NCBI GenBank assembly: GCA_035656295.1
Contig: DASRSU010000008.1
Span: forward strand, 983,420 to 1,047,419
Direction: 5' to 3'
Source: Candidatus Bathyarchaeia archaeon
Lineage (GTDB): Archaea; Thermoproteota; Bathyarchaeia; 40CM-2-53-6
DNA length: 64,000 bases
This document shows positions 52,001 through 62,313 of this stretch, piece after piece; within the stretch, counting starts at the first letter, position 1; each line of letters starts with the position of its first letter. A model generated the notes under the pieces. That model did no database searches, was not told the origin of the DNA, and saw only the letters and a program-made list of their open reading frames with translations. The translations under genes and the position numbers were made by a program.

Positions 52001-52342
52001 CTAGCCGGTTTTTTCTAGTATGATCTCAATTGTCGACACGTTGCGTGTCTCGCCTTCTTCCCCCAAAACCTCTGAACCGATCTTGACTTCCTTGATGTTC
52101 ACTTTTCCTTGGAAGAATCTTCGGCGGACGACTTCTACAACGTCGACGGCGTGACTGATCGATTTTCCGCGTGCTTTGACCGTTAACTGCTTCTGGCCCA
52201 TGTTGAAGTGCATCATTACCGCAGTTGCATAAGCCATCAAAGGCTTCTTCCCGATGAACACAGTGTCTGCTGGAATTGTGCTACGAGGTTTCACGCTTGC
52301 TGTCTTTCCTTCCTCGCTGATCCGTTCGTGTTGTTGGCCCAT
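52001..52342 (-). CDS. albA: Alba DNA/RNA-binding protein
   Basis: [20 protein letters not shown]...[21 protein letters not shown] is a typical Alba sequence. Confidence 0.85.
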
Positions 52343-52495: not shown

Positions 52496-53596
52496 CTAGA
52501 GGATTTCGCGCGTGAGTGCCTCTCTAAACTTGACACGACAGTCTTGGCACTGGAAGAGTCCAATTAGTACGTTCTTCTTCGACTTTCCGCCCTTCAGTTC
52601 CCAGACCTTGGCCGGCTTCGGTACGTCAGCACCACACTTTGGACAGACTACTTTGTAGAACTGGCTTGGCAGAGTTAGCTCCGTCTTTGAAAGGTCAGGG
52701 CTCGCAGGTACGCTGGGCACAGTCTCGGTTGTAGGTATTGCTGTTTGCACTTGTGAAACGTCTGGGCTCACCATCGTTGAAGACGTTTCGATTGCAGGTA
52801 CGTCGTCCACTACTTTTACGACTAGCGCGTCCGCGACATCTTCCGCAGCGTCAGCGTTCGCAGTTGACTCGTCGAATACTGGTCCAATGTCAGCGCTCAC
52901 GGTTGGCACTGTAAACGAAGATGGAGTCCAGGCTTGAACGGGGGCCTCTGGCGTGACCGTGGCTGGGGCGTTATTGGTTTCCGGGTTGGGGAAGGATGTG
53001 CCGTTAGTCTGTGGCTGGATCTGCGGTGATGGGCTTGCCTGACCACCGATGTCCGCTACGATGCGTTGAGGAAGAGTCGGCGCCGTGGGGATCATTGGGG
53101 TAGATATTGGTGGCGATTGCAGGGACGAGTTTGTTGCGGGAACAAAGACGGATGGCTTGTCTGGTATCGTTTTTGTCCAAACATCAGCTGTCAAGGGTTT
53201 CGGTGCTATCGCGGGATAGTTTTGCTTGAACTCTGCGGGTGCGAGGGGTTTGGTCTCGATGTGGGATAGTACGTCTATCATCTGTCTGATGTCTTCGATG
53301 CTCTTGAGGTTTCTTTGTAAGAGTCCCTTGAATTCTTCGCGTTGCGCGCGGTATTCTGACTCGTTCACTTCTCCGGTGACGTATTTTGTTTCGAGGTTCA
53401 GCAATCGTTGTGGAGTGTTGGCAATCTGGTCCTTTGTCTCTTTGAGATGGTCGTTCAGTGTATAGCCCAGGACGTTGATCCTGTCTTGCAGGTCTTGGGA
53501 TGCTCTTCCATAATCCTCGTGGATTGTTCGCATTTTTTCCTTGTAGCCGTTGATTTCACTGATCAGTTTCTCTAAGGTTAGGTCGTTTAGTCCCAT
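52496..53596 (-). CDS. coiled-coil protein with Pro/Thr/Ser-rich linker and C-terminal zinc ribbon
   Basis: Heptad-like N-terminus, low-complexity middle, CPKCGA...CQDCRV. Confidence 0.4.
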   Translation of the reverse strand: MGLNDLTLEKLISEINGYKEKMRTIHEDYGRASQDLQDRINVLGYTLNDHLKETKDQIANTPQRLLNLETKYVTGEVNESEYRAQREEFKGLLQRNLKSIEDIRQMIDVLSHIETKPLAPAEFKQNYPAIAPKPLTADVWTKTIPDKPSVFVPATNSSLQSPPISTPMIPTAPTLPQRIVADIGGQASPSPQIQPQTNGTSFPNPETNNAPATVTPEAPVQAWTPSSFTVPTVSADIGPVFDESTANADAAEDVADALVVKVVDDVPAIETSSTMVSPDVSQVQTAIPTTETVPSVPASPDLSKTELTLPSQFYKVVCPKCGADVPKPAKVWELKGGKSKKNVLIGLFQCQDCRVKFREALTREIL

Positions 53597-53992
53597 TTTT
53601 TTCTCCTAGGGAATTCCTGTCTACTGGGTGAAATGGTAAAAGGATTCGAAGCCGCAAAACGCCAAAAATCAACTGTCTAAAGCAAGGATAACGACTGCAG
53701 ATAACAACGGCGTTGTCAAGTAGTCCAATAGAAACATTGAGGTTTTAACTTGCTGTGCTAGAGCAAAATTGGGTAAAACACAACAAATCAACCATTTTTC
53801 GTTTCGCATATAAACCAAAACCGTGTTGTGGCCCCCACAAGAGACTGGTCTCTTTACTGTTACAATCCCACAACCTATTGCGTGCACTAGAATCCTGATC
53901 ATCTGCTTGTAGCGAAACCACACCTCAACGTGTCAAGAACTCACTTTGCGAATTGCCCTGTCAAACGAGCGTTTAGAGGAAGAAGATAGACA

Positions 53993-54649
53993 ATGTCCTA
54001 CAAGTCCTTGAAGAACTGGGAGAGGGGCCAATCGTCGCCTCTACTCTCAAGAATAGGTGAACGCGTCCACCACCAAGAACCGCTCAAAGAGAGAATATCG
54101 CAGTGCATGTACAGGCTCAAAGTACAACAGAACCGGCTCGAAGGAGCCAACCTGAAAACTCAACAACACGACAAGATGCTCTTCGATAAGTGCGTCCAGG
54201 CCCAGATGTCTAAGGACACAGCGCGAAGCACAATGTACGCCAACGAGATCGCAGAGATCCGCAAAATGGCCAAGGTTACCATGCGAAGCGAACTCGCAAT
54301 CGAACAAGTAGTCCTCCGCCTCGAAACCATCCAAGAATTCGGAGATGTAGCTGCAACGATGGGGCCAATCGCAGGAGTCGTCAGCGCTATCAAGAACCAG
54401 GTCCAGGGAGTAATTCCACAAGTCGGCTACGAGCTCGGAGAAATATCGGAAGCGCTCAACGGTGTAGTCATCGAGGTCGGCGAAGCCACTGGCACGAGCT
54501 ACGATCTTGAGACTTCTGGCATGGAGGCACAGAAGATCCTGACCGAAGCGAACACCATAGCAGAAACTCGGATGCGTGAAAAATTCCCGGAGTTACCCTC
54601 GCCAGCAGGCGTCTACGAACGCCCTGCTGAGCCAGTATTACCGAGGTAG
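53993..54649 (+). CDS. cdvB: CdvB (ESCRT-III/Snf7-like) paralog 1
   Basis: Snf7-like helical core conserved with the other two paralogs (YANEIAEIRKMAKVTMRSELAIEQVVLRLETIQEFGD). Confidence 0.8.
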   Translation: MSYKSLKNWERGQSSPLLSRIGERVHHQEPLKERISQCMYRLKVQQNRLEGANLKTQQHDKMLFDKCVQAQMSKDTARSTMYANEIAEIRKMAKVTMRSELAIEQVVLRLETIQEFGDVAATMGPIAGVVSAIKNQVQGVIPQVGYELGEISEALNGVVIEVGEATGTSYDLETSGMEAQKILTEANTIAETRMREKFPELPSPAGVYERPAEPVLPR

Positions 54650-54682
54650 GAGGATAACTCCACCCAATTTTTTCATGAGGAC

Positions 54683-55399
54683 ATGAAAATGATTGCCTTA
54701 GACCAAGTTAGAAGATTTCTCGGACGATCGCTCCAAGATCCATACGGGAGGACGTTCGGCAAGGTTGTCGGTATCTCCGCGAGTCTCAAAGACGAGGTTA
54801 CAGCAGTAGGAATCGAAGTAGGCAACGGTGAATTTGCCCAGTGTCCCGGAGACCGGATAACGATCAACGGAGACAACCTGGTCCTTGCGCCGGCTTGGAA
54901 GATTGAAGCTGAAGAGTTCCGAAAGGAATTCGACATCGTAACTAGGCGTCTCAAAGCTCTCGACGAGCTGTTCAGTCTCGGAGACATCCAGAAGGACGTC
55001 TATGAGGATCTTAGGAAACAGCACGAGGATGCAATCAACGAGCTGAAGTCGAAAAGGGAACAGTTACTTCAAATTCTGTCAGAACGCACCGGCACTCTAA
55101 CCACGCAGCTCCGACAGCTCCAGACTCACCTTGCAGGAAACAAGATGCTCCATTCCTCTGGAGAGTTTGATGATGACAATTACAAGGCGGCCAGCGACGC
55201 GATAGAAATCGGCCTCATACGCGCCACTGCGGAAAGGAAGGATGTCGACTCGATCTTCAGCTACCTGTCCAAGCTCGACTCGACCCCGTCAAGGTTCGTG
55301 CCTTCGCCTCAGCAAATACCAGTCCAGACTCAGTCTCAACCCGCGTCCCAGACCCAATCCCAGGGACAGGTTATGGTACTCCACGTGAGAGAGACCTAG
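54683..55399 (+). CDS. cdvA: CdvA (PRC-barrel N-domain plus coiled coil) paralog 1
   Basis: PRC-barrel-like N-terminus (FLGRSLQDPYGRTFGKVVGI) followed by a long coiled coil, the thaumarchaeal CdvA architecture. Confidence 0.75.
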   Translation: MKMIALDQVRRFLGRSLQDPYGRTFGKVVGISASLKDEVTAVGIEVGNGEFAQCPGDRITINGDNLVLAPAWKIEAEEFRKEFDIVTRRLKALDELFSLGDIQKDVYEDLRKQHEDAINELKSKREQLLQILSERTGTLTTQLRQLQTHLAGNKMLHSSGEFDDDNYKAASDAIEIGLIRATAERKDVDSIFSYLSKLDSTPSRFVPSPQQIPVQTQSQPASQTQSQGQVMVLHVRET

Positions 55400-55513
55400 G
55401 AGCTGAAGAGCCTGTTTCGGAAGCTAGAGGAGAGAGTTCACCCGATACCGCTCAAGGAGCGGATAAACCAGGCACTTTTCCGACTCTCCAGCCAGAAAGA
55501 CAAACTGGAGCAC

Positions 55514-56212
55514 ATGTCCGCACGGCTCCAGCAGCGGGACAAGGAAATGTTCCAAAGATGCATTGGAGCGCAATTGTCCAAGGACAACGCTCACGCCGCC
55601 CTCTACGCAAACGAGTGTGCCGAGATACGCAAGATGGCGCACATTACCCTCAGCAGCGAGCTTGCACTGGAAAGAGTAGTTCTCCGTCTACAAACCATCG
55701 AGGAATTTGGAGACATCATGGCCCAGATCGCACCTGTAATAGGCGTTGTACGCGAGACTCGCGGAAGGATAGCGGGAGTAATTCCCGAAGTTGCCACCGA
55801 ACTCGGCGAAGTGAACAACATGCTCAGCGACATGAGCCTCGAAACCGGCGAAGTCCAAGACCAGGAACTCGACATGGGAGCCTCAAGCGCCGAAGCGAAG
55901 AAAGTATTGGAAGAGTCTAGTACGATCGCATCACAACAGATGAGAGAGAGATTCCCGGAGCTGCCGATGCCTGAGTCTCGTCAGCCTACTCCCGCGAAGA
56001 GTGACGCACCAGAAGCGAAGATCCCCGTTGCCATAACCTCCGGCGGATACGAAGAGGCTCTTCCCATCGAAGATAGGCTCCTCGACTATATCAAAAGCCA
56101 CGACGGCGAACTAAGTGTCAACTCCTGCTCCGCGGAACTTTCGATTTCTACAAACGACATTAGACGGTCACTCCAGAAGCTCAAGGATGATGGAAGAATA
56201 GTAATGGACTAG
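55514..56212 (+). CDS. cdvB: CdvB paralog 2 with C-terminal winged-helix domain
   Basis: Snf7 core plus C-terminal wH (LLDYIKSHDGELSVNSCSAELSISTNDIRRSLQKLKDDGRIVMD). Conserved N-terminal helix continues in frame upstream to the cdvA stop at 55397-55399, with no canonical start. Confidence 0.8.
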   Translation: MSARLQQRDKEMFQRCIGAQLSKDNAHAALYANECAEIRKMAHITLSSELALERVVLRLQTIEEFGDIMAQIAPVIGVVRETRGRIAGVIPEVATELGEVNNMLSDMSLETGEVQDQELDMGASSAEAKKVLEESSTIASQQMRERFPELPMPESRQPTPAKSDAPEAKIPVAITSGGYEEALPIEDRLLDYIKSHDGELSVNSCSAELSISTNDIRRSLQKLKDDGRIVMD

Positions 56213-56428
56213 AACCAGCCACGCCAAAAGCGAACAGTTCCAGTCTCATCGGGGGAGTCACACATCTCGGCTTCTGAAGAGCTTGAATCTCTAGCCGTAA
56301 GATACGCGAAAGAAGCGATTGAGCTAGAAAAGAAAGGATCCAAAAGGCTTGCGGCCACAAAGTACCAGCGAGCAGTAGAGGTACTGCTGAAACTCTGCTC
56401 ACTCTATCCCTCAGCTCCCCAGAACAAG

Positions 56429-57412
56429 GTGTACATGGAACACGCAGAGGTTTATCGGAAGAGGATCCAAGAACTATCCGCAGACCAGGAACCCATTCAA
56501 CACCCTTCGGACTCGACTGAGACCAAGGACTCGAAGAACATCAAGTTCGACCAGTGGGTCTTAACCGAAAAGCCGGACATCACATGGGACGACATTGCAG
56601 ATCTCGAAAAGCCGAAGCGAGCCATCGAAGAGTCAATAATATTCCCGGTGCGTCGGCCCGATCTGTTCCCGCTCGGCTGGCCTCGTGGAATACTATTCTT
56701 TGGACCACCTGGATGCGGTAAGACGCTGCTGGCAGCTGCGATTGCGAGCGAGATCAAGGGCGTATTCTTCTGCGCTGACGCAGCATCCTTGATGTCGAAA
56801 TGGCTGGGAGAGTCCGAACGAAACGTCTCACAACTGTTCACGAAAGCACGGGAAAACGCGGAGAATGGTCAACCTGCAATTGTGTTCATCGACGAGATAG
56901 ACTCTCTGATGGGAGTGCGCGGCGAGGAAGTTGGGGGAGAAGTCAGGGTAAGAAACCAGTTCCTGAAAGAAATGGACGGAATACTTGACAAGAACAAGAA
57001 CCAGCACGTGTACTTGATAGGCGCTACGAACAAGCCTTGGGTTCTCGACGAGCCCTTCATCCGACGGTTCCAGAAACGAATCTACGTGCCACTACCAGAC
57101 GTCAAAGCAAGAATGGACATGTTCCAGATCTATGCCGAGGATTTGAAGTTCGACAACAATGTGGACATGGCCCAGCTTGCAAGGCTGACAGAAGGATATT
57201 CTGGCGGCGACATTCGAGACCTCTTCCAGGCCACTCAGCTCAAGGTAGTTCGAGATTTCTTCCAACATGGAAAGGCAACTGATCCAATTGCCATACCAGA
57301 CCCAATAACGATGGAGGACTTCCAGGCGATTCTGACGACTCGTCGTCCAAGCGTCTCAACTGGGATTCTGAAGCGGTACTACGACTGGGACGAATCGTTC
57401 AAGGCGTTATGA
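56429..57412 (+). CDS. cdvC: CdvC/Vps4 AAA+ ATPase
   Basis: Walker A GPPGCGKT and AAA core. The MIT three-helix bundle continues in frame upstream of the GTG at 56429 back to ~56260, with no ATG/GTG/TTG. Confidence 0.85.
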   Translation: MYMEHAEVYRKRIQELSADQEPIQHPSDSTETKDSKNIKFDQWVLTEKPDITWDDIADLEKPKRAIEESIIFPVRRPDLFPLGWPRGILFFGPPGCGKTLLAAAIASEIKGVFFCADAASLMSKWLGESERNVSQLFTKARENAENGQPAIVFIDEIDSLMGVRGEEVGGEVRVRNQFLKEMDGILDKNKNQHVYLIGATNKPWVLDEPFIRRFQKRIYVPLPDVKARMDMFQIYAEDLKFDNNVDMAQLARLTEGYSGGDIRDLFQATQLKVVRDFFQHGKATDPIAIPDPITMEDFQAILTTRRPSVSTGILKRYYDWDESFKAL

Positions 57413-57532
57413 GGAGGACTGCACACGCTGAACCTTGACGGTACTGATCTTCGCATCCTCGCAGAGCTTGTAGAGAATTCGAAGCAGTCGTATGTAGAAA
57501 TCGGACGAAAACTCGCGCTACACCCTAACGTC

Positions 57533-57907
57533 GTGGCCTACCGAGTAAACCGGCTCGAGGAAGCAGGCATCATACGAGAATACACAACGCTGGTGGACTT
57601 TTCCAAACTCGGCCTCTCAGAACAGGTCATAGTGGCCGCGAACTTTCCACCGAACACGTCACGAGACGATATTCTGAAACAAATCTGCGACATTCCAGAG
57701 ACGGTTAACGTGATCAGTTCTTTGGGAACACCGGAGGGTCTTGTCTTCATTGTAGCACGCAACAAGGAGGACGTTAACGCTGTACTGTCGAAACTGCGAT
57801 CGATGAACTTGGCAATCGACTTCGCATCCTCAGTAATCCGGACCTATGACGAAGGTCGTCTAGGCACGTTCCTGAGGGCCATGGCGGGTACGGACCCGAG
57901 GTTCTAG
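57533..57907 (+). CDS. lrp: Lrp/AsnC-family transcription regulator
   Basis: RAM domain after the ATG at 57533. The HTH (LDGTDLRILAELVENSKQSYVEIGRKLALHPNVVAYRVNRLEEAGII) lies in frame upstream from 57413 with no canonical start. Confidence 0.8.
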   Translation: MAYRVNRLEEAGIIREYTTLVDFSKLGLSEQVIVAANFPPNTSRDDILKQICDIPETVNVISSLGTPEGLVFIVARNKEDVNAVLSKLRSMNLAIDFASSVIRTYDEGRLGTFLRAMAGTDPRF

Positions 57908-57914
57908 TTGAACA

Positions 57915-58379
57915 TTGGAAAGGCCCGCATGGATGATTATCATATTGTCCGCTTTGGCCCCGACAGATATCGCCGATTGGGTCGCGATTGCCGTGCTAGC
58001 CCTTGCATCCATGGAATCCATAGTCGCTGGTTTCGCGCTTGACCTGTTGAAACCGGGGAATTGGATCCTATTTATGATAATTCCTCTAGTTAGTTTGCTT
58101 GCGTCTTTGTCGAACGGTTCGCAGAGAGAAAGGGAAGAGCTGGCGTTCGTTGCCTACGGTAGTCGTCGAGGACATATTCACTTTCGATACTTTCTCAAAG
58201 GAGTCATTATTTCCGTGATAGGTATTTTTCCAGTTCTAGCCGCACAGGTTCTTCTTTCGAACGCGTCGAGCGGGTTGGTGGTAGCGGCGGTAGCCTCTGT
58301 CGGTGCCGGCTTCTTCTATTCAATTCCGAGCTTTCGTCGTCTGGGATCAGGTCACTTCGTAGGACGGTACAAGAGATAG
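57915..58379 (+). CDS. hypothetical integral membrane protein
   Basis: Four hydrophobic helices. Confidence 0.4.
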   Translation: MERPAWMIIILSALAPTDIADWVAIAVLALASMESIVAGFALDLLKPGNWILFMIIPLVSLLASLSNGSQREREELAFVAYGSRRGHIHFRYFLKGVIISVIGIFPVLAAQVLLSNASSGLVVAAVASVGAGFFYSIPSFRRLGSGHFVGRYKR

Positions 58380-59069
58380 TTGACACATCTGCTCAGCGCC
58401 CACTCTTTGCAAGTAGAATATCTCACCAACCAAGGCTGCCTGAGACTATACGATAACGGAATCTCGTTTGAGATGCAAACAGGCGATTTCCTGGCTGTTC
58501 TAGGTGGTTCAGGTTGGGGAAAATCGACACTGGTCAACGTAGTTCTAGGGCTTGAGAGGCCAACTAGCGGCACGTTACACTTGAAGGCGAGAGACGTCAC
58601 GGCCAGTTCGTTCGTGAAAAGGTGTGCGCTGACAAAGATTGCTGCTGTGTTCCAGAGACCTACGAGCCTGTCTGGAATGACTGTTTTGCAGAATTTGCGG
58701 TTAGCACTGTCTCTGGCAGGAATTCCTAGAAAGGAACGAGAAGGTCGAATCCGTGAGTCTCTTGGATTCTTCGGGCTGGAAGGGATCTGGAATAATTATC
58801 CGGAGCATCTTAGTGCTGGACAGAGGCGTAGGATAGATCTTGCTAGGGCGGTCGCTATCCGACCCGAATTATTGGTTCTCGACGAGCCGACTTGCGATCT
58901 TGACTCATCAGCTACGAACCTTGTGATGCCTCTGCTGAGAGGATTGAACAAGGAACATGGAACCTCTATCTTCATGACCACGGCAATTCCTCGACAAGCA
59001 ACTTCTGCTACGCGATCATTTCATTTGACACCCCCGACATTGCTGACTTCTGCGAATAGGACGGCTTGA
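58380..59069 (+). CDS. ABC transporter ATP-binding protein
   Basis: Walker A GGSGWGKST, signature LSAGQRRR, Walker B LLVLDEPT. TTG start abuts the preceding membrane protein. Confidence 0.7.
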   Translation: MTHLLSAHSLQVEYLTNQGCLRLYDNGISFEMQTGDFLAVLGGSGWGKSTLVNVVLGLERPTSGTLHLKARDVTASSFVKRCALTKIAAVFQRPTSLSGMTVLQNLRLALSLAGIPRKEREGRIRESLGFFGLEGIWNNYPEHLSAGQRRRIDLARAVAIRPELLVLDEPTCDLDSSATNLVMPLLRGLNKEHGTSIFMTTAIPRQATSATRSFHLTPPTLLTSANRTA

Positions 59070-59076
59070 GCGGGGG

Positions 59077-59691
59077 TTGTGCTTGTTCGAGCAGAACTCG
59101 TCAGTTCTCGAAAAGATCCGGGAAGCGGTGAAGCCTACTCCGATCAAGCAGCGCATAGACCATGCAACCTTCCGGTTACGAACCCAATCTAACAAGCTGC
59201 AAAGGTCAATTGACCAGATGGAGTCTCGAGAATCTACAATCCACGAGAAATGCGTCAAAGCATTAGAGGCTAGAGATACTCAGACTGCCACAGTTTTCGC
59301 GAACGAGTGTGTAGAAGTCAGGAAGCTGTTGAAGACCTCTGTCAAAAGCCAGATTTGCCTAGAACAGGCGGTTTTGAGGCTTGAAACGATAGAACAGTTC
59401 GGCGACATGGCACACGGCATGAGCATGGTGAAAGGGATTCTCGGAAGCATCAGAGGAGAACTTGCTGGCAAGCTTCCAGAAATCTCAACGGGGATAGGGG
59501 ACGTCGAGGATTCTCTTGAGAGGCTCACCGGTGAGATTGGCCAGACTATCGATGCCGAGGGTGTCTCCATTCCGTCAAACGATGAGTCGGCACGAATCCT
59601 GAGAGAAGCGGATCTAGTCGCGGAACAGAAGATGAAAGAAAAATTCCCGGAAATTCCAAACACTACTGCTGGTGCAAACAAACTCAGGTAG
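59077..59691 (+). CDS. cdvB: CdvB paralog 3
   Basis: FANECVEVRKLLKTSVKSQICLEQAVLRLETIEQFGD is conserved with paralogs 1 and 2. Confidence 0.8.
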   Translation: MCLFEQNSSVLEKIREAVKPTPIKQRIDHATFRLRTQSNKLQRSIDQMESRESTIHEKCVKALEARDTQTATVFANECVEVRKLLKTSVKSQICLEQAVLRLETIEQFGDMAHGMSMVKGILGSIRGELAGKLPEISTGIGDVEDSLERLTGEIGQTIDAEGVSIPSNDESARILREADLVAEQKMKEKFPEIPNTTAGANKLR

Positions 59692-59701
59692 ATGAAGACT
59701 A

Positions 59702-60325
59702 ATGATCTCAACAGAACTGGAGGTAAAGGCACTTCTCGGAAGAAGAGTCACTGACAATTACGGCAGAAGTATCGGACGGATCATCGCGATTGATCGAAAT
59801 GCATTCGGTGAGATGGAAGGGGTCCAGGTTGAAGCGGCGGCAGGACAGATAGTCGAGGCCAAAGCAACCCAGCTCGCCGTAACACCTAGTACCGTCAAAC
59901 TTACCGCTGACTGGAAGGTCCAGGTTGACCTGTTGGTCTCGGAATTGTCGCTGATGCGGAAACGAGTGCTAGCACTCGGGTCCTTGAAGGATTCAAAGGA
60001 TATCGACTTGGAAATCTACGAGGAACTCCTAACAGCTCAGAGGGCGGGCTATGCGGACAAGCTCGCCATAGGAAGACAGCTGGTGGAACTGATGAAACAG
60101 AGACTACGCGACGTTACTGGACAAGTTGGATCCTTGACGAGGCATCTTGCAACTGCAAAACTCGACCACAAAAGCGGCGTCCTAGACGAGCAGTCGTTGA
60201 GAATCACTGAGGACTCGATCCAACCCACACTAGCGCCATTGATCGCGGAAAAGACGGATCTTACAAAGTCACTACGAGAACTTGAACCCGTCCTGGCGGA
60301 CCAACACGTGTCCCTCTCGCGTTAG
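59702..60325 (+). CDS. cdvA: CdvA-like paralog 2 (PRC barrel plus coiled coil)
   Basis: LLGRRVTDNYGRSIGRIIAI PRC-barrel-like N-terminus and coiled coil; same architecture as 54683..55399. Confidence 0.7.
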   Translation: MISTELEVKALLGRRVTDNYGRSIGRIIAIDRNAFGEMEGVQVEAAAGQIVEAKATQLAVTPSTVKLTADWKVQVDLLVSELSLMRKRVLALGSLKDSKDIDLEIYEELLTAQRAGYADKLAIGRQLVELMKQRLRDVTGQVGSLTRHLATAKLDHKSGVLDEQSLRITEDSIQPTLAPLIAEKTDLTKSLRELEPVLADQHVSLSR

Positions 60326-61199
60326 ACATTGCTCAATTTCTTACACGAGATCGTGTCGTAGTCAAATCTCGTTTTTCACGAGAGCTCCTTCCAAGATCTC
60401 TTCGGCCCTCCCGGAACAGGAAAAATCGTGTCCGAACACCCACGAAAACACCGTTGCACGCACAAGGAATTAGGCCCCATGCGCATTCATGCTCGAATAA
60501 AGCCAGCTTGAGGCAGAGAAATCACATTTTCAAATTTTCACAAAAAATAAGGTTTCTTTTTTCTAGGGCCCGGGGGTAGCCCAGTCGCGCGCGCGAGCCC
60601 GAACGAAAAACACGTGAAAAAACCATGATTTCCCTTGAGCCCGCACGGGTTCATACTCGACCAGAATAAGCACCTAGAAGAACCAGCAGTGCACACTCCT
60701 CATATCCTCTAGCAGTTCCAGCACAATCCCGGATTCAAAATGCTTCCCGTAGAATCGCCCAGAACAAGCCCTGACCAAGGAATAAAGCACGCGATTCCCT
60801 ACCTGCACGCCCTCACGCTTGAATCTGCATTAAGTCGGGTAGTCAACACTACTGACTAACAGCGACTTTACGGCTAGAATCCCGCAAATCGCGTATGATC
60901 AGCCCGTCCAGCGAGGGAGCTCAAAAGAGAAAATTCTAGCAAGAGGAGGACTCTTCGCAAGCCAATTATCAGACCATGCTATAGCTTGGGCAAGGGCGAG
61001 CGCGACACGCCCGCCTCGAGAGAGCCGGGCTGAGGGAAGACACTTTGATCTTCACAGTGAGGCTTGGGTGTTAGTGCCGCGGGCGACAGGGACCATAAAG
61101 GTTCCAAACGCGAACCTCGCCCCCTCAAAAACCATCCAGGCCCAAACGTACAATCTTATTATTCCAACACTAGGAAACGTCCGACCATAGGAGGAGCCA

Positions 61200-62313
61200 A
61201 TGGACCCGGCCGAACGCATCGAACTCATAACACGTGGAACAATCGAGATCATCCAGAGACAAGAACTAGAACAACTGCTCGCCAAGACCAGGAAGCCCCG
61301 CGCGTACTGGGGCTTCGAACCCTCCGGAAAGCAGACAAGAACAATGCCTGCACGGAATGATGCACATCGGACAAGGACTAGTATGCGGCAACAAGATCAA
61401 GGACCTCATCCAAGCCGGCTTCCACTTCACAATCTTGCTAGCCGACTGGCACGCCATGATCAACAACAAATACAATGGCGACATGGACAAGATACACACA
61501 ACCGGCGAATACTTCATCCACTGCTTCACAGCCCTCGGAATCCCGCGAAATAACGTCGAATACATCTGGGCATCCGAACTAGCGGCAGAAAGCGAATACT
61601 GGAACCGAGTCCTCAAAATAGCCAAAGTCACAACAACCAACCGAGTCATGAGAGCATTACCCATACTCGGACGAGAACTAAAGACCCAGGACACAGACGC
61701 CGCCAGCATCTTCTACCCATGCATGCAAGCAGCCGACATCTTCCAGATGCAACTGGACCTCGCATGCGCCGGAATCGACCAACGAAAAGCACACATCCTA
61801 GCCCGTGAAGCAGGCGAACGACTCGGATGGGGCAAACCAGTAAGCCTCCACATCCCACTCCTGATGGGACTCGGCGGAGCGCAGGGCTTTGAGAAGGCGA
61901 GCTTCGACGAAGACCCCAAATTGAGCCAAGTAATCGCCGCCAAAATGTCGAAAAGTAAGCCCGAAGACAATATCCTCATTCACGACACCCCCGAACAAAT
62001 AGCGGACAAGATGCGCAAAGCCTACTGCCCTCCACGAATTGTCGAAGGAAACCCAGTCCTTGACTATTGCCGCCTCCTAATCTTCCCAAGAGAAGAGCCA
62101 CTCATACTGGAACGCGACAAGAAATACGGAGGAAACCTAGAATTCAACAAGTACGAGGAGCTAAAACAAGCCTATGTCGCAGGCAGCGTCCATCCAGAGG
62201 ATCTGAAAAGGAACGTGTCCCGAATTTTATCGGAGAGACTCAGCTCCGTCAGGGAATACTTCAAGAAAAATCCAACACCCCTCCAAGAGATGCGCAAAAT
62301 CAACGCCTCGTGA
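61200..62313 (+). CDS. tyrS: tyrosyl-tRNA synthetase, apparent frameshift near 61330-61360
   Basis: The N-terminal part (AYWGFEPSGK) is in one frame and the rest (MHIGQGLV...KMSKS...) in another. The two parts are separated by a 25-nt segment that does not align, leaving them out of frame by one nucleotide. Confidence 0.75.

Follow-up and report, generated by a model that had tools for sequence, protein, structure and literature searches.

A probable Cdv (ESCRT-III-type) division operon of soil Bathyarchaeia with a second CdvB-CdvA pair, an embedded ABC module and candidate CUG and AUC start codons

The contig DASRSU010000008.1 of a Candidatus Bathyarchaeia archaeon (GenBank assembly GCA_035656295.1) carries a compact array of Cdv genes, i. 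e. genes of the cell division system that is related to the endosomal sorting complex ESCRT-III. We have analysed 64,000 nucleotides of this contig (positions 983,420 to 1,047,419 of the forward strand); this stretch is called the window, and all coordinates refer to it. Nine genes of the plus strand form one co-directional array between positions 53993 and 60325, in the order cdvB1, cdvA1, cdvB-wH, cdvC, lrp, a gene for a protein with four transmembrane helices (4-TM protein), an ABC ATPase gene, cdvB3 and cdvA2. They are 0-51 nt apart, and from cdvC onward the distances are only 0-15 nt. A scan of every open reading frame (ORF) of the 64 kb with hidden Markov models detected exactly three ORFs of the CdvB kind and three related to CdvA. 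All six lie in this cluster, which reaches upstream of position 53993: there, a third gene for a CdvA coiled coil, followed by alba, is encoded on the minus strand. Taken together, it is likely that the region is the main Cdv (ESCRT-III-type) membrane-remodelling and cell division operon of a soil Bathyarchaeia archaeon. The features are the following, with the mechanical ORF given where it differs from our gene model:

52001-52342, minus strand: alba, chromatin protein (Pfam Alba on orthologs; adjoins the cluster in the soil lineage and in lineages G1-G3)
52496-53596, minus strand: third CdvA-related gene, CdvAcc-ZnR (Pfam CdvA PF18822, 31.6 bits, cut-off 30)
53597-53992, no strand: divergent intergenic region (conserved non-coding blocks in a ten-species alignment)
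53993-54649, plus strand: cdvB1, ESCRT-III paralog without winged helix (NCBIfam CdvB1/B2, 218 bits; C-terminal FPELP, MIM2-like)
54689-55399, plus strand: cdvA1, canonical CdvA (Pfam CdvA, 67 bits; mechanical ORF from 54683)
55412-56212, plus strand: cdvB-wH, ESCRT-III core with C-terminal winged helix (NCBIfam CdvB, 175 bits; mechanical ORF 55514-56212)
56264-57412, plus strand: cdvC, Vps4-like AAA+ ATPase with MIT domain (NCBIfam CdvC, 456 bits; mechanical ORF 56429-57412)
57428-57907, plus strand: lrp, Lrp/AsnC regulator with helix-turn-helix (HTH) and RAM domains (HTH_AsnC-type, 43 bits; mechanical ORF 57533-57907)
57915-58379, plus strand: 4-TM membrane protein (no significant family match)
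58380-59069, plus strand: ABC ATPase (ABC_tran, 99 bits; starts directly at the stop codon of the 4-TM gene)
59083-59691, plus strand: cdvB3, divergent ESCRT-III paralog without winged helix (Pfam Snf7, 39 bits; NCBIfam CdvB1/B2, 151 bits; FPEIP; mechanical ORF from 59077)
59702-60325, plus strand: cdvA2 (NCBIfam CdvA, E 1e-13; Pfam only 22.8 bits, cut-off 30)

The original prediction, made from the letters of the DNA, had placed a compact cdv cluster at 53993-60325, and we recovered its nine genes at those coordinates with agreeing family assignments. The three CdvB paralogs belong to the ESCRT-III family according to their scores with the NCBIfam CdvB1/B2 model (218, 175 and 151 bits for CdvB1, CdvB-wH and CdvB3, respectively), and all three contain an FPE[LI]P motif. 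Within the window, CdvB1 is 48% identical to CdvB-wH and 36% to CdvB3, and CdvB3 shares 36-37% of its residues with either of the others. A C-terminal winged helix-turn-helix (HTH_DeoR, E 5e-4, residues 222-263) was matched in CdvB-wH only, and the alignment of this protein to the NCBIfam CdvB profile extends to position 259 of 260. The core of CdvB-wH is closer to CdvB2 than to CdvB of Sulfolobus: in the PDB, the solved CdvB2 is matched with E 1e-45 and the solved CdvB with E 1e-27. The winged-helix CdvB had been proposed to lie directly upstream of a Vps4-like ATPase, and this is indeed the case. CdvC has AAA (128 bits), AAA_lid and Vps4_C (23 bits) domains and an MIT domain that falls just short of the cut-off of 30 (26.7 bits, E 6e-6); the latter shows only if the protein is started at the ATC at 56264. 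Read from the CTG at 57428, Lrp matches the AsnC-type HTH (residues 3-44) and AsnC_trans_reg (21.6 bits, E 2e-4, cut-off 25).

The two CdvA proteins differ in their anatomy. CdvA1 consists of a PRC barrel, a three-helix coiled coil, a linker rich in proline, glutamine, serine and threonine, and a C-terminal strand (VMVLHVRET), a motif that is conserved in canonical CdvAs. It matches the solved CdvA (PDB 9S9G) at E 3e-22. CdvA2 is only 26% identical to CdvA1, and its single-sequence Pfam score is 22.8 bits. Nevertheless, CdvA2 is a true CdvA paralog that is under selective constraint. An AlphaFold2 model computed from an alignment of 40 sequences (predicted local distance difference test, pLDDT, 87.4; predicted template modelling score, pTM, 0.77) shows a six-stranded beta-barrel of the PRC type (residues 15-67, pLDDT 84-90) followed by a coiled coil of three helices (residues 70-98, 103-157 and 163-199). 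In a Foldseek search with this model, the top nine matches in the PDB were chains of the CdvA protein of S. islandicus, either as the filament (9S9G) or as a non-polymerising mutant (9S9I), with template modelling scores of 0.75-0.83 by query length and 0.82-0.88 by target length, about 194 residues aligned to 9S9G, and E-values down to 1e-11. The next matches were PRC H subunits and archaeal PRC proteins that cover only 59-71 columns (E 3e-3 to 1e-2). The CdvA2 family profile detects the CdvA protein of the PDB at E 3e-31, and an exhaustive phmmer search matched about 130 canonical CdvA representatives over nearly the full length at 20-30% identity, among them one member of the CdvA1 family (E 4.5e-17). 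Moreover, a precomputed match to PF18822 is present in the database for the CdvA2 protein itself (P0001, 100% identical) and for every family member listed. Finally, cdvA2 lies directly downstream of cdvB3 and 2.3 kb from cdvC in the same operon, and this position is conserved. The original prediction had offered structure prediction for 59702-60325 as a way to disprove a second CdvA, and this analysis has instead borne out two PRC-barrel/coiled-coil CdvAs, each encoded right after a CdvB paralog. In the annotation of NCBI, CdvA2 (VFE98_08785) is a 'hypothetical protein' and CdvA1 a 'CdvA-like protein'.

The polymerisation of S. islandicus CdvA requires six hydrophobic residues of the longitudinal filament interface, A90, L94, I100, I149, M153 and I156 (Drobnic 2026, PMC12818579). 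The equivalent residues of CdvA2 are A91, L95, I101, A150, L154 and K157, i. e. four of the six are retained, with A150 and K157 as the exceptions. CdvA1 has A, L, I, A, M and S at these positions, and it also carries an alanine and a polar residue, serine, at the two sites that deviate in CdvA2. CdvA2 has neither the low-complexity linker nor an end of the VMVLHVRET type; it ends eight residues past its third helix, and the tail, LPxxVS[IL], is conserved and reads HVSLSR in the window. The proteins encoded at the same position in two divergent lineages, G1 and G2 (see below), end with SSLTLRIRD and EPIVLQLEG, which resemble the VxVxHVxE strand of CdvA1.

The gene models of three members of the array had to be revised. 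The mechanical ORFs of cdvB-wH, cdvC and lrp match their family profiles only from position 37-57 onward and lack helix 1 of CdvB, the MIT domain and the HTH, respectively. These N-termini are encoded in frame right after the stop codon of the upstream gene, in stretches that contain no ATG, GTG or TTG. Candidate starts are a CTG at 55412 for cdvB-wH (AGGAG 9 nt upstream), an ATC at 56264 for cdvC (GGGGGAG 6 nt upstream) and a CTG at 57428 for lrp (preceded by GAGGAGGA). Proteins begun at these codons regain the complete N-terminus, the MIT domain (26.7 bits) and the AsnC-type HTH (43 bits from residue 3), respectively. We compared the start codons in about 20 species. For cdvB-wH, the aligned codon in front of FRK[LF]EE is CTG in 19 loci, GTG in three, and TTG and TTA in one each, with AGGAG(G) 9 nt upstream. 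For cdvC, the codon in front of SASEELE is ATC in 15 loci, GTG in three, GTT in two, and ATT and ATA in one each, with GGAGG 6-8 nt upstream. The lrp gene has GTG, TTG or ATG in front of NLDGTD in most loci, and CTG in the window and in locus L028; cdvA2 starts with TTG (seven), ATG (four), CTG (three: L016, L023 and L028) or GTG (two). Between the upstream in-frame stop codon and the proposed start, no canonical start codon was found for CTG (8/8 distinct sequences) or for ATC, ATT or ATA (13 sequences). We infer that cdvB-wH is initiated at CUG and cdvC at AUC, or at AUU or AUA in two species, behind Shine-Dalgarno sites of the GGAGG type. In the divergent lineage G1, ATG is the start codon of these genes, and initiation at CUG and AUC would thus be a derived feature of the soil lineage. 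In the literature searched, we found no earlier account of a conserved initiation at codons other than AUG, GUG and UUG in an archaeal operon, and the conserved CUG and AUC starts appear not to have been described before. The cdvA1 and cdvB3 genes probably start at 54689 and 59083, respectively; the 236-aa form of CdvA1 is the one annotated by NCBI. In the relatives L003 and L005, the NCBI annotation already begins cdvC at ATC. On L001, the cdvB-wH product called by Logan is too short, with 212 aa as compared to 266 aa from the CTG. The CTG and ATC starts cause gene callers to clip CdvB-wH, CdvC and Lrp in this genome, and domain surveys based on such calls would wrongly list the HTH, the MIT domain and the first helix of CdvB as missing.

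The arrangement of the genes is strongly conserved. The order alba and CdvAcc-ZnR on the minus strand, followed by the nine genes of the array, is identical in every locus of the soil lineage that is long enough to show it, so that a chance pattern can be excluded. The complete array with the flanking pair is present in about 20 related species (L002-L028). The relatives found among the GTDB species genomes are metagenome-assembled genomes (MAGs) of soil 'Bathyarchaeota' or '13_1_40CM', except for L008 and L013, which are labelled bacterial. Moreover, the nine-gene array together with alba was found in two far more divergent metagenomic lineages, G1 (L033-L040) and G2 (L042-L055), in a scan of metagenomes that took as seeds CdvA-like proteins with about equal scores to CdvA1 and CdvA2. 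Their CdvC proteins are 65% and 57% identical to CdvC of the window, respectively, as compared to 81-87% (tblastn) in the soil relatives. Two other groups have only a part of the array: the lineage of L063 has cdvB-cdvA-cdvB(wH)-cdvC-lrp, and the loci L068-L109 have cdvB-cdvA-cdvB(about 300 aa)-cdvC, with CdvA 27-31% and CdvC about 55% identical to the window. These loci indicate that B-A-B-C is a widely shared core order. The original prediction had read the cluster as duplicated B-A modules; the natural parse of its first half is rather cdvB1 followed by a canonical cdvA-cdvB(wH)-cdvC core.

The genes differ in their degree of conservation. The median identity to the window is highest for lrp (89%), followed by cdvC (86%), cdvB-wH (81%), cdvB1 (79%), alba (75%), cdvA1 (74%), the ABC ATPase gene (65%), cdvB3 (63%), CdvAcc-ZnR (59%), cdvA2 (57%) and the 4-TM gene (37%). 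The ratio of nonsynonymous to synonymous substitution rates (dN/dS) is between 0.007 and 0.126 for all eleven genes, with 0.007 for lrp, 0.028 for cdvB3, 0.041 for cdvA2, 0.048 for cdvB1 and 0.126 for the 4-TM gene; the second pair, cdvB3 and cdvA2, is thus under purifying selection. In a tree of the CdvB proteins, B1, B-wH and B3 each form one clade with members from the soil, G1 and G2 lineages. In bootstrapped CdvA trees, CdvA1 is monophyletic in 100/100 and CdvA2 in 99/100 replicates, and the two never form an exclusive pair (0/100). More than 200 CdvA2 clusters are present in soil metagenomes. Since the CdvB clades span the lineages, CdvA1 and CdvA2 are never exclusive sisters and the identities between the paralogs are low, the second CdvB-CdvA pair is old and has been inherited orthologously. 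For CdvA2, orthology across the lineages rests on synteny rather than on a grouping with the P0130 group in the tree. The orthology of the extra genes extends over the soil, G1 and G2 lineages, which makes the extension of the core old.

The gene pair between lrp and cdvB3 is clearest in the divergent lineages. In G1 and G2, the gene at the position of the 4-TM gene (L033:6187-6696 and L042:6125-6622) encodes an FtsX-family protein of 166-170 aa with four transmembrane helices, without an extracytoplasmic domain and with a textbook FtsX motif (KRQEIGILRALGA and KRREVAILRALGA). These permeases match Pfam FtsX at 38.8 and 40 bits (cut-off 25.5) and, in addition, the NCBIfam models LolCE, LolE, FtsX_Gpos and MacB. 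They seem unusually minimal: E. coli FtsX, LolC and LolE have 352-414 aa and a large periplasmic domain. For the ABC ATPase of G1, the top-scoring models are LolD (180 bits) and FtsE (164 bits). These matches show that the operons of G1 and G2 hold a minimal FtsX-family permease and a LolD/FtsE-like ATPase, i. e. a type VII ABC module, and we conclude that such a module has been part of the operon ancestrally. The 4-TM protein of the window has no significant Pfam match; FtsX (PF02687) reaches only E 1.8 and 9.1 bits, in the expected region. Its conserved loop RxxREELALFAYGGSxxQIxxRYFxRG resembles the coupling-helix motif of FtsX/MacB permeases, and the match was marginal when tested. In an hhalign comparison of the 4-TM family with E. 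coli FtsX, LolC, LolE and MacB, the motif is in register and the alignment is weak (P 0.029; two of 60 column shuffles score as well), and the same holds for the soil family as compared to the G1/G2 family (P 0.035). A Pfam scan of 16 members of the family, a PDB profile search and both hhalign comparisons gave only marginal FtsX scores. A search with regular expressions revealed no other FtsX permease in the window and the loci L001-L028. The ABC ATPase of the window matches, among other NCBIfam models, DarD (128 bits), FtsE (124 bits) and LolD (117 bits). Overall, the permeases have 154-170 aa and short loops between the predicted helices, and even those of G1 and G2 leave no room for an extracytoplasmic domain. 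Based on synteny, size, topology and the marginal alignment, the 4-TM protein of the window is probably a strongly diverged descendant of a minimal permease of the FtsX/MacB type. We take it to work like such a permease, but do not assign it to the family by its sequence.

The divergent region between CdvAcc-ZnR and cdvB1 contains several blocks that are invariant in ten species, in an intergenic alignment with a mean column identity of 74%: AAATGGTAAAAG at 53631-53642, a TATA-like ATATAAACCAAAA at 53808-53820, about 185 nt upstream of cdvB1, an inverted repeat TTGTGG (53826-53831)/CCACAA (53835-53840) with a spacer of three nucleotides, and TGTCAAGAA at 53931-53939. In addition, TGTCAA recurs at about 53714 and 53960. 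These blocks are candidate promoter or operator elements. A scan for sigma-70 promoters and terminators uses a bacterial model and is uninformative for an archaeon.

On the other side of this region, the divergent gene at 52496-53596 encodes a CdvA coiled coil with a C-terminal CxxC...CxxC zinc ribbon; the matches to Cren7 and zinc ribbons are weak. The position of the gene is conserved in the relatives, and the same architecture, a CdvA coiled coil with a zinc ribbon of the Cren7 type, has been described before (Kaur et al. 2018, PMC5906684). Downstream of cdvA2, the stretch of about 870 nt at 60326-61199 contains no convincing ORF, tRNA, or Rfam match even at E = 1, and tRNA and Rfam scans of the window including this gap of 0.9 kb gave no match. 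The relatives hold other genes downstream of cdvA2 (an NTP transferase and cysteinyl-tRNA synthetase). The tyrosyl-tRNA synthetase gene at 61200-62313 is split into two frames with a junction at about 61333-61360: the N-terminal part ends with ...YWGFEPSGK, the remainder begins with MHIGQGL, and about 28 nt (CAGACAAGAACAATGCCTGCACGGAATG) lie in between. In homologs such as the enzyme of M. jannaschii, the sequence is contiguous at this point. The RNA fold of the region is unremarkable (z = -0.6) and shows no bulge-helix-bulge motif. An assembly error, a small insertion or a frameshift may lie behind the split, or the gene may be a pseudogene.

How does this operon compare with known Cdv systems? 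The cdvA-cdvB-cdvC operon of Sulfolobus and other Crenarchaeota reportedly goes back to work by Lindas in 2008 and by Samson in 2008 and 2011. The core order found here is the same: cdvA comes first, then cdvB, whose product ends in a winged helix, and then cdvC, which encodes MIT and AAA+ domains. Sulfolobus CdvB paralogs have short N-terminal helices and proline-rich C-terminal motifs as do those of the window, and the fold of CdvA2, a PRC barrel with three helices, is that of Sulfolobus CdvA (0.82-0.88 to 9S9G; PMC12818579). In contrast to Sulfolobus, where the CdvB paralogs are dispersed, all of them are encoded in the operon here, which moreover contains two full CdvAs in addition to the CdvA-coiled-coil/zinc-ribbon protein, has an Lrp regulator and the putative type VII ABC module inside, and apparently uses CUG (cdvB-wH) and AUC (cdvC) as start codons. 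Thaumarchaeota (Nitrososphaeria) likewise have CdvA, several CdvB paralogs and CdvC. However, their cdv genes are dispersed, with CdvA not near CdvB or CdvC (Frohn 2022, PMC8970359), none of their CdvBs has a winged helix, and a coiled-coil protein, arCOG08707, precedes cdvC (Makarova 2024, PMC10936438). None of these features is shared by the operon, in which a CdvB with a winged helix is present and the genes are clustered. The Thaumarchaeota, to which the original prediction had turned for comparison, are therefore not the proper frame of reference: the host belongs to the Bathyarchaeia, and the relatives are MAGs of soil Bathyarchaeota.

FtsEX is a division-site protein of bacteria. Like FtsEX, LolCDE and MacB, which make up the type VII or 'mechanotransmission' ABC family, the embedded module pairs an ATPase of the LolD/FtsE kind with a permease of four transmembrane helices. 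Type VII permeases have a cytoplasmic R-x-x-E-I-G-I-L-R-A-L-G-A motif after the second helix, which is clear in G1 and G2 and degenerate in the window (REELAFVAYGS). In contrast to FtsX, LolC/E and MacB, the permease has only 154-170 aa and lacks the extracytoplasmic domain that is used there on periplasmic partners, and in contrast to bacterial FtsEX, its gene sits among ESCRT-III genes rather than fts genes, with the copy of the window below the Pfam threshold. As regards the literature, additional CdvA-like proteins have been reported in Bathyarchaea and Thermoproteales, with multiple CdvA-family proteins per genome, and a supplementary table lists four arCOG04054 proteins, three CdvBs and one Vps4 for the soil MAG 13_1_40CM_3_53_5 (Makarova et al. 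2024, PMC10936438). The text of this study discusses only glutamate-rich CdvA-like proteins outside the cdv locus. It contains neither FtsX, FtsE nor Lrp, its sole mention of ABC proteins being an unrelated ProX/ABC transporter in loci of methanogens, and neither the CdvB3-CdvA2 pair in the operon, its orthology across lineages, the linkage with the ABC and Lrp genes nor the start codons appear there (PMC10936438). Searches for Bathyarchaeia with CdvB and for FtsX with CdvA returned nothing relevant in the literature covered, which did not include subscription journals. The embedded minimal FtsX-type ABC module with a second CdvA-CdvB pair appears not to have been described before. The original prediction would have fallen if this arrangement were both universal and already characterised in close relatives; it is universal in the relatives examined, but not characterised: in the literature that could be searched, the genes appear only as entries of a supplementary table.

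It is tempting to speculate how the parts might act together, with Sulfolobus as the guide. CdvA1 would form a membrane-proximal filament scaffold, and its C-terminal strand would recruit CdvB-wH like the E3B peptide in Sulfolobus. CdvB1 and CdvB3, with their presumed N-terminal amphipathic helices and MIM2-like FPE[LI]P tails and without a winged helix, would be the constricting polymers, and CdvC may turn them over through MIT-MIM2 contacts. CdvA2, without the long linker, could be a second scaffold dedicated to CdvB3, either alone or co-polymerised with CdvA1, and the type VII ABC module might link the hydrolysis of ATP to a change of conformation at the membrane, which would act on the CdvA2/CdvB3 sub-assembly. 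Lrp would control the transcription of the operon, and the weak start codons may keep the levels of CdvB-wH and CdvC below those of CdvA1 and CdvB1. Taken to its end, this would make the division machine of the Bathyarchaeia a composite in which a minimal ABC 'mechanotransducer' of the FtsEX/MacB type and the second CdvA-CdvB pair are integral and co-regulated, and in which near-cognate starts (CUG for cdvB-wH, AUC for cdvC) set the stoichiometry, an idea that we regard as tentative and more doubtful than the assignment of the operon as such.

Several points weigh against the overall interpretation of the operon. Every functional step is drawn by analogy. CdvA2 has no long linker and no clear E3B peptide for meeting a CdvB, and its placement beyond 'not sister to CdvA1' is weak, the grouping with the P0130 group seen in the first neighbour-joining tree recurring in 8/100 bootstraps. 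The FtsX match of the 4-TM protein of the window is not significant (E 1.8; hhalign P about 0.03), and a single-sequence AlphaFold2 model of this protein is unusable (pLDDT 57), so that its assignment rests on synteny. The ATPase of the window is a generic ABC protein by its ranking in the PDB, with MacB, FtsE, LolD, BceA and YtrE among the matches, and not exclusively these. The initiation at CUG and AUC relies on sequence comparison, and according to a review, archaea use only AUG, GUG and UUG as start codons (PMC7531240). Finally, no FtsZ was found in the 64-kb window, to which this search was confined.

Two alternatives concern the genes themselves. The mechanical ORFs of cdvB-wH, cdvC and lrp, without helix 1, MIT domain and HTH, could suggest truncated pseudogenes or assembly errors, and since cdvB1, cdvA1, cdvB-wH, cdvC and lrp (53993-57907) share one reading frame in the window, with the absent N-termini directly after the upstream stops, the five genes might even be read through their stop codons to give a polyprotein. 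However, the N-termini are intact, in frame and under purifying selection: the stretches 5' of the first canonical codon show the evolutionary pattern of coding sequence (pN/pS, the ratio of nonsynonymous to synonymous polymorphism, 0.12, 0.09 and 0.06). At the proposed positions some relatives have GTG, ATG or TTG, Shine-Dalgarno sites lie at the right distance, and the junctions are identical in an independent Logan assembly (L001). In L026 and L027, an in-frame TGA is present two codons upstream of the GTG of cdvC. The shared frame is a coincidence since cdvA1 and cdvB-wH are in different frames in the relatives, and readthrough is thus not conserved. Conservation, pN/pS and the independent assembly rule out pseudogenes or assembly errors, the differing frames rule out a polyprotein, and we give these explanations almost no credence. 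Even less can be said for a recent tandem duplication of cdvB1-cdvA1, specific to the organism or genus, as the origin of the second pair. The original prediction had spoken of duplicated modules, a wording that would imply something recent or special. The repeated B-A order and the small number of CdvA2-specific matches in a library clustered at 50% would fit this idea, but with CdvA1 and CdvA2 only 26% and CdvB1 and CdvB3 only 36% identical, CdvB3 orthologs in one clade across three lineages, no exclusive CdvA1+CdvA2 clade in any of the 100 bootstraps and more than 200 CdvA2 clusters in soil metagenomes, the CdvB tree and the CdvA bootstraps refute it.

The other alternatives concern the function of the downstream half. 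As the main alternative, the FtsX-like permease, the ABC ATPase, CdvB3 and CdvA2 could be a separate remodelling device, e. g. for the budding of extracellular vesicles or for membrane repair, that shares only CdvC and the regulation with the division core. The ESCRT proteins of Sulfolobales drive the formation of vesicles besides division, according to work cited in PMC10936438. The second half evolves faster, with median identities of 57-65% (37% for the permease) as compared to 74-86% for the cdv genes of the first half, and the core works without the extension since L063 has only B-A-B(wH)-C-lrp and L068-L109 only B-A-B-C. Yet there is no spacing signal between the halves, the gaps being 0-15 nt from cdvC onward, and cargo-binding or ubiquitin-type domains are absent; as the sequence does not distinguish vesicle budding from cytokinesis, we judge a separate device to be unlikely, though well worth keeping in mind. 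Less plausible still, lrp and the ABC pair might be passengers without a functional relation to the cdv genes, e. g. a regulator and a small exporter, that came into the cluster by historical accident. Both Lrp regulators and ABC modules are frequent neighbours of many kinds of genes, the ATPase of the window is of a generic kind, and the permease is poorly conserved (37% median identity, dN/dS 0.126). Against this, the five-gene extension keeps its order even in lineages with a CdvC of 57-65% identity, no gene of the array is more conserved than lrp, the passenger candidates abut their neighbours or sit less than 16 nt away, and a permease without an extracytoplasmic or substrate domain is a poor fit to a plain exporter. 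The tight linkage with lrp and the ABC ATPase gene, which had already been pointed out in the original prediction, is thus conserved in evolution, and this argues for a functional connection.

In soils and sediments, the Bathyarchaeia rank with the most abundant archaea, and we found no paper that describes how they divide. The operon provides a complete and compact list of candidate parts, with Vps4, three ESCRT-III paralogs and two or three scaffolds of the CdvA type. In gene order, it forms a bridge between the cdvABC operon of Sulfolobus and the scattered genes of the Thaumarchaeota. With two orthologous CdvA scaffolds in one operon, it represents a natural experiment on the way in which CdvA determines the choice of the ESCRT-III paralog to be recruited, a question that can now be tested against the CdvA filament structure of 2026. 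The minimal ABC module of the FtsX type inside the operon hints at an unexpected input to the ESCRT system, by energy coupling or by regulation. If the idea of a composite machine is true, a division ABC module of the bacterial type would be linked to an ESCRT system of the archaeal and eukaryotic type.

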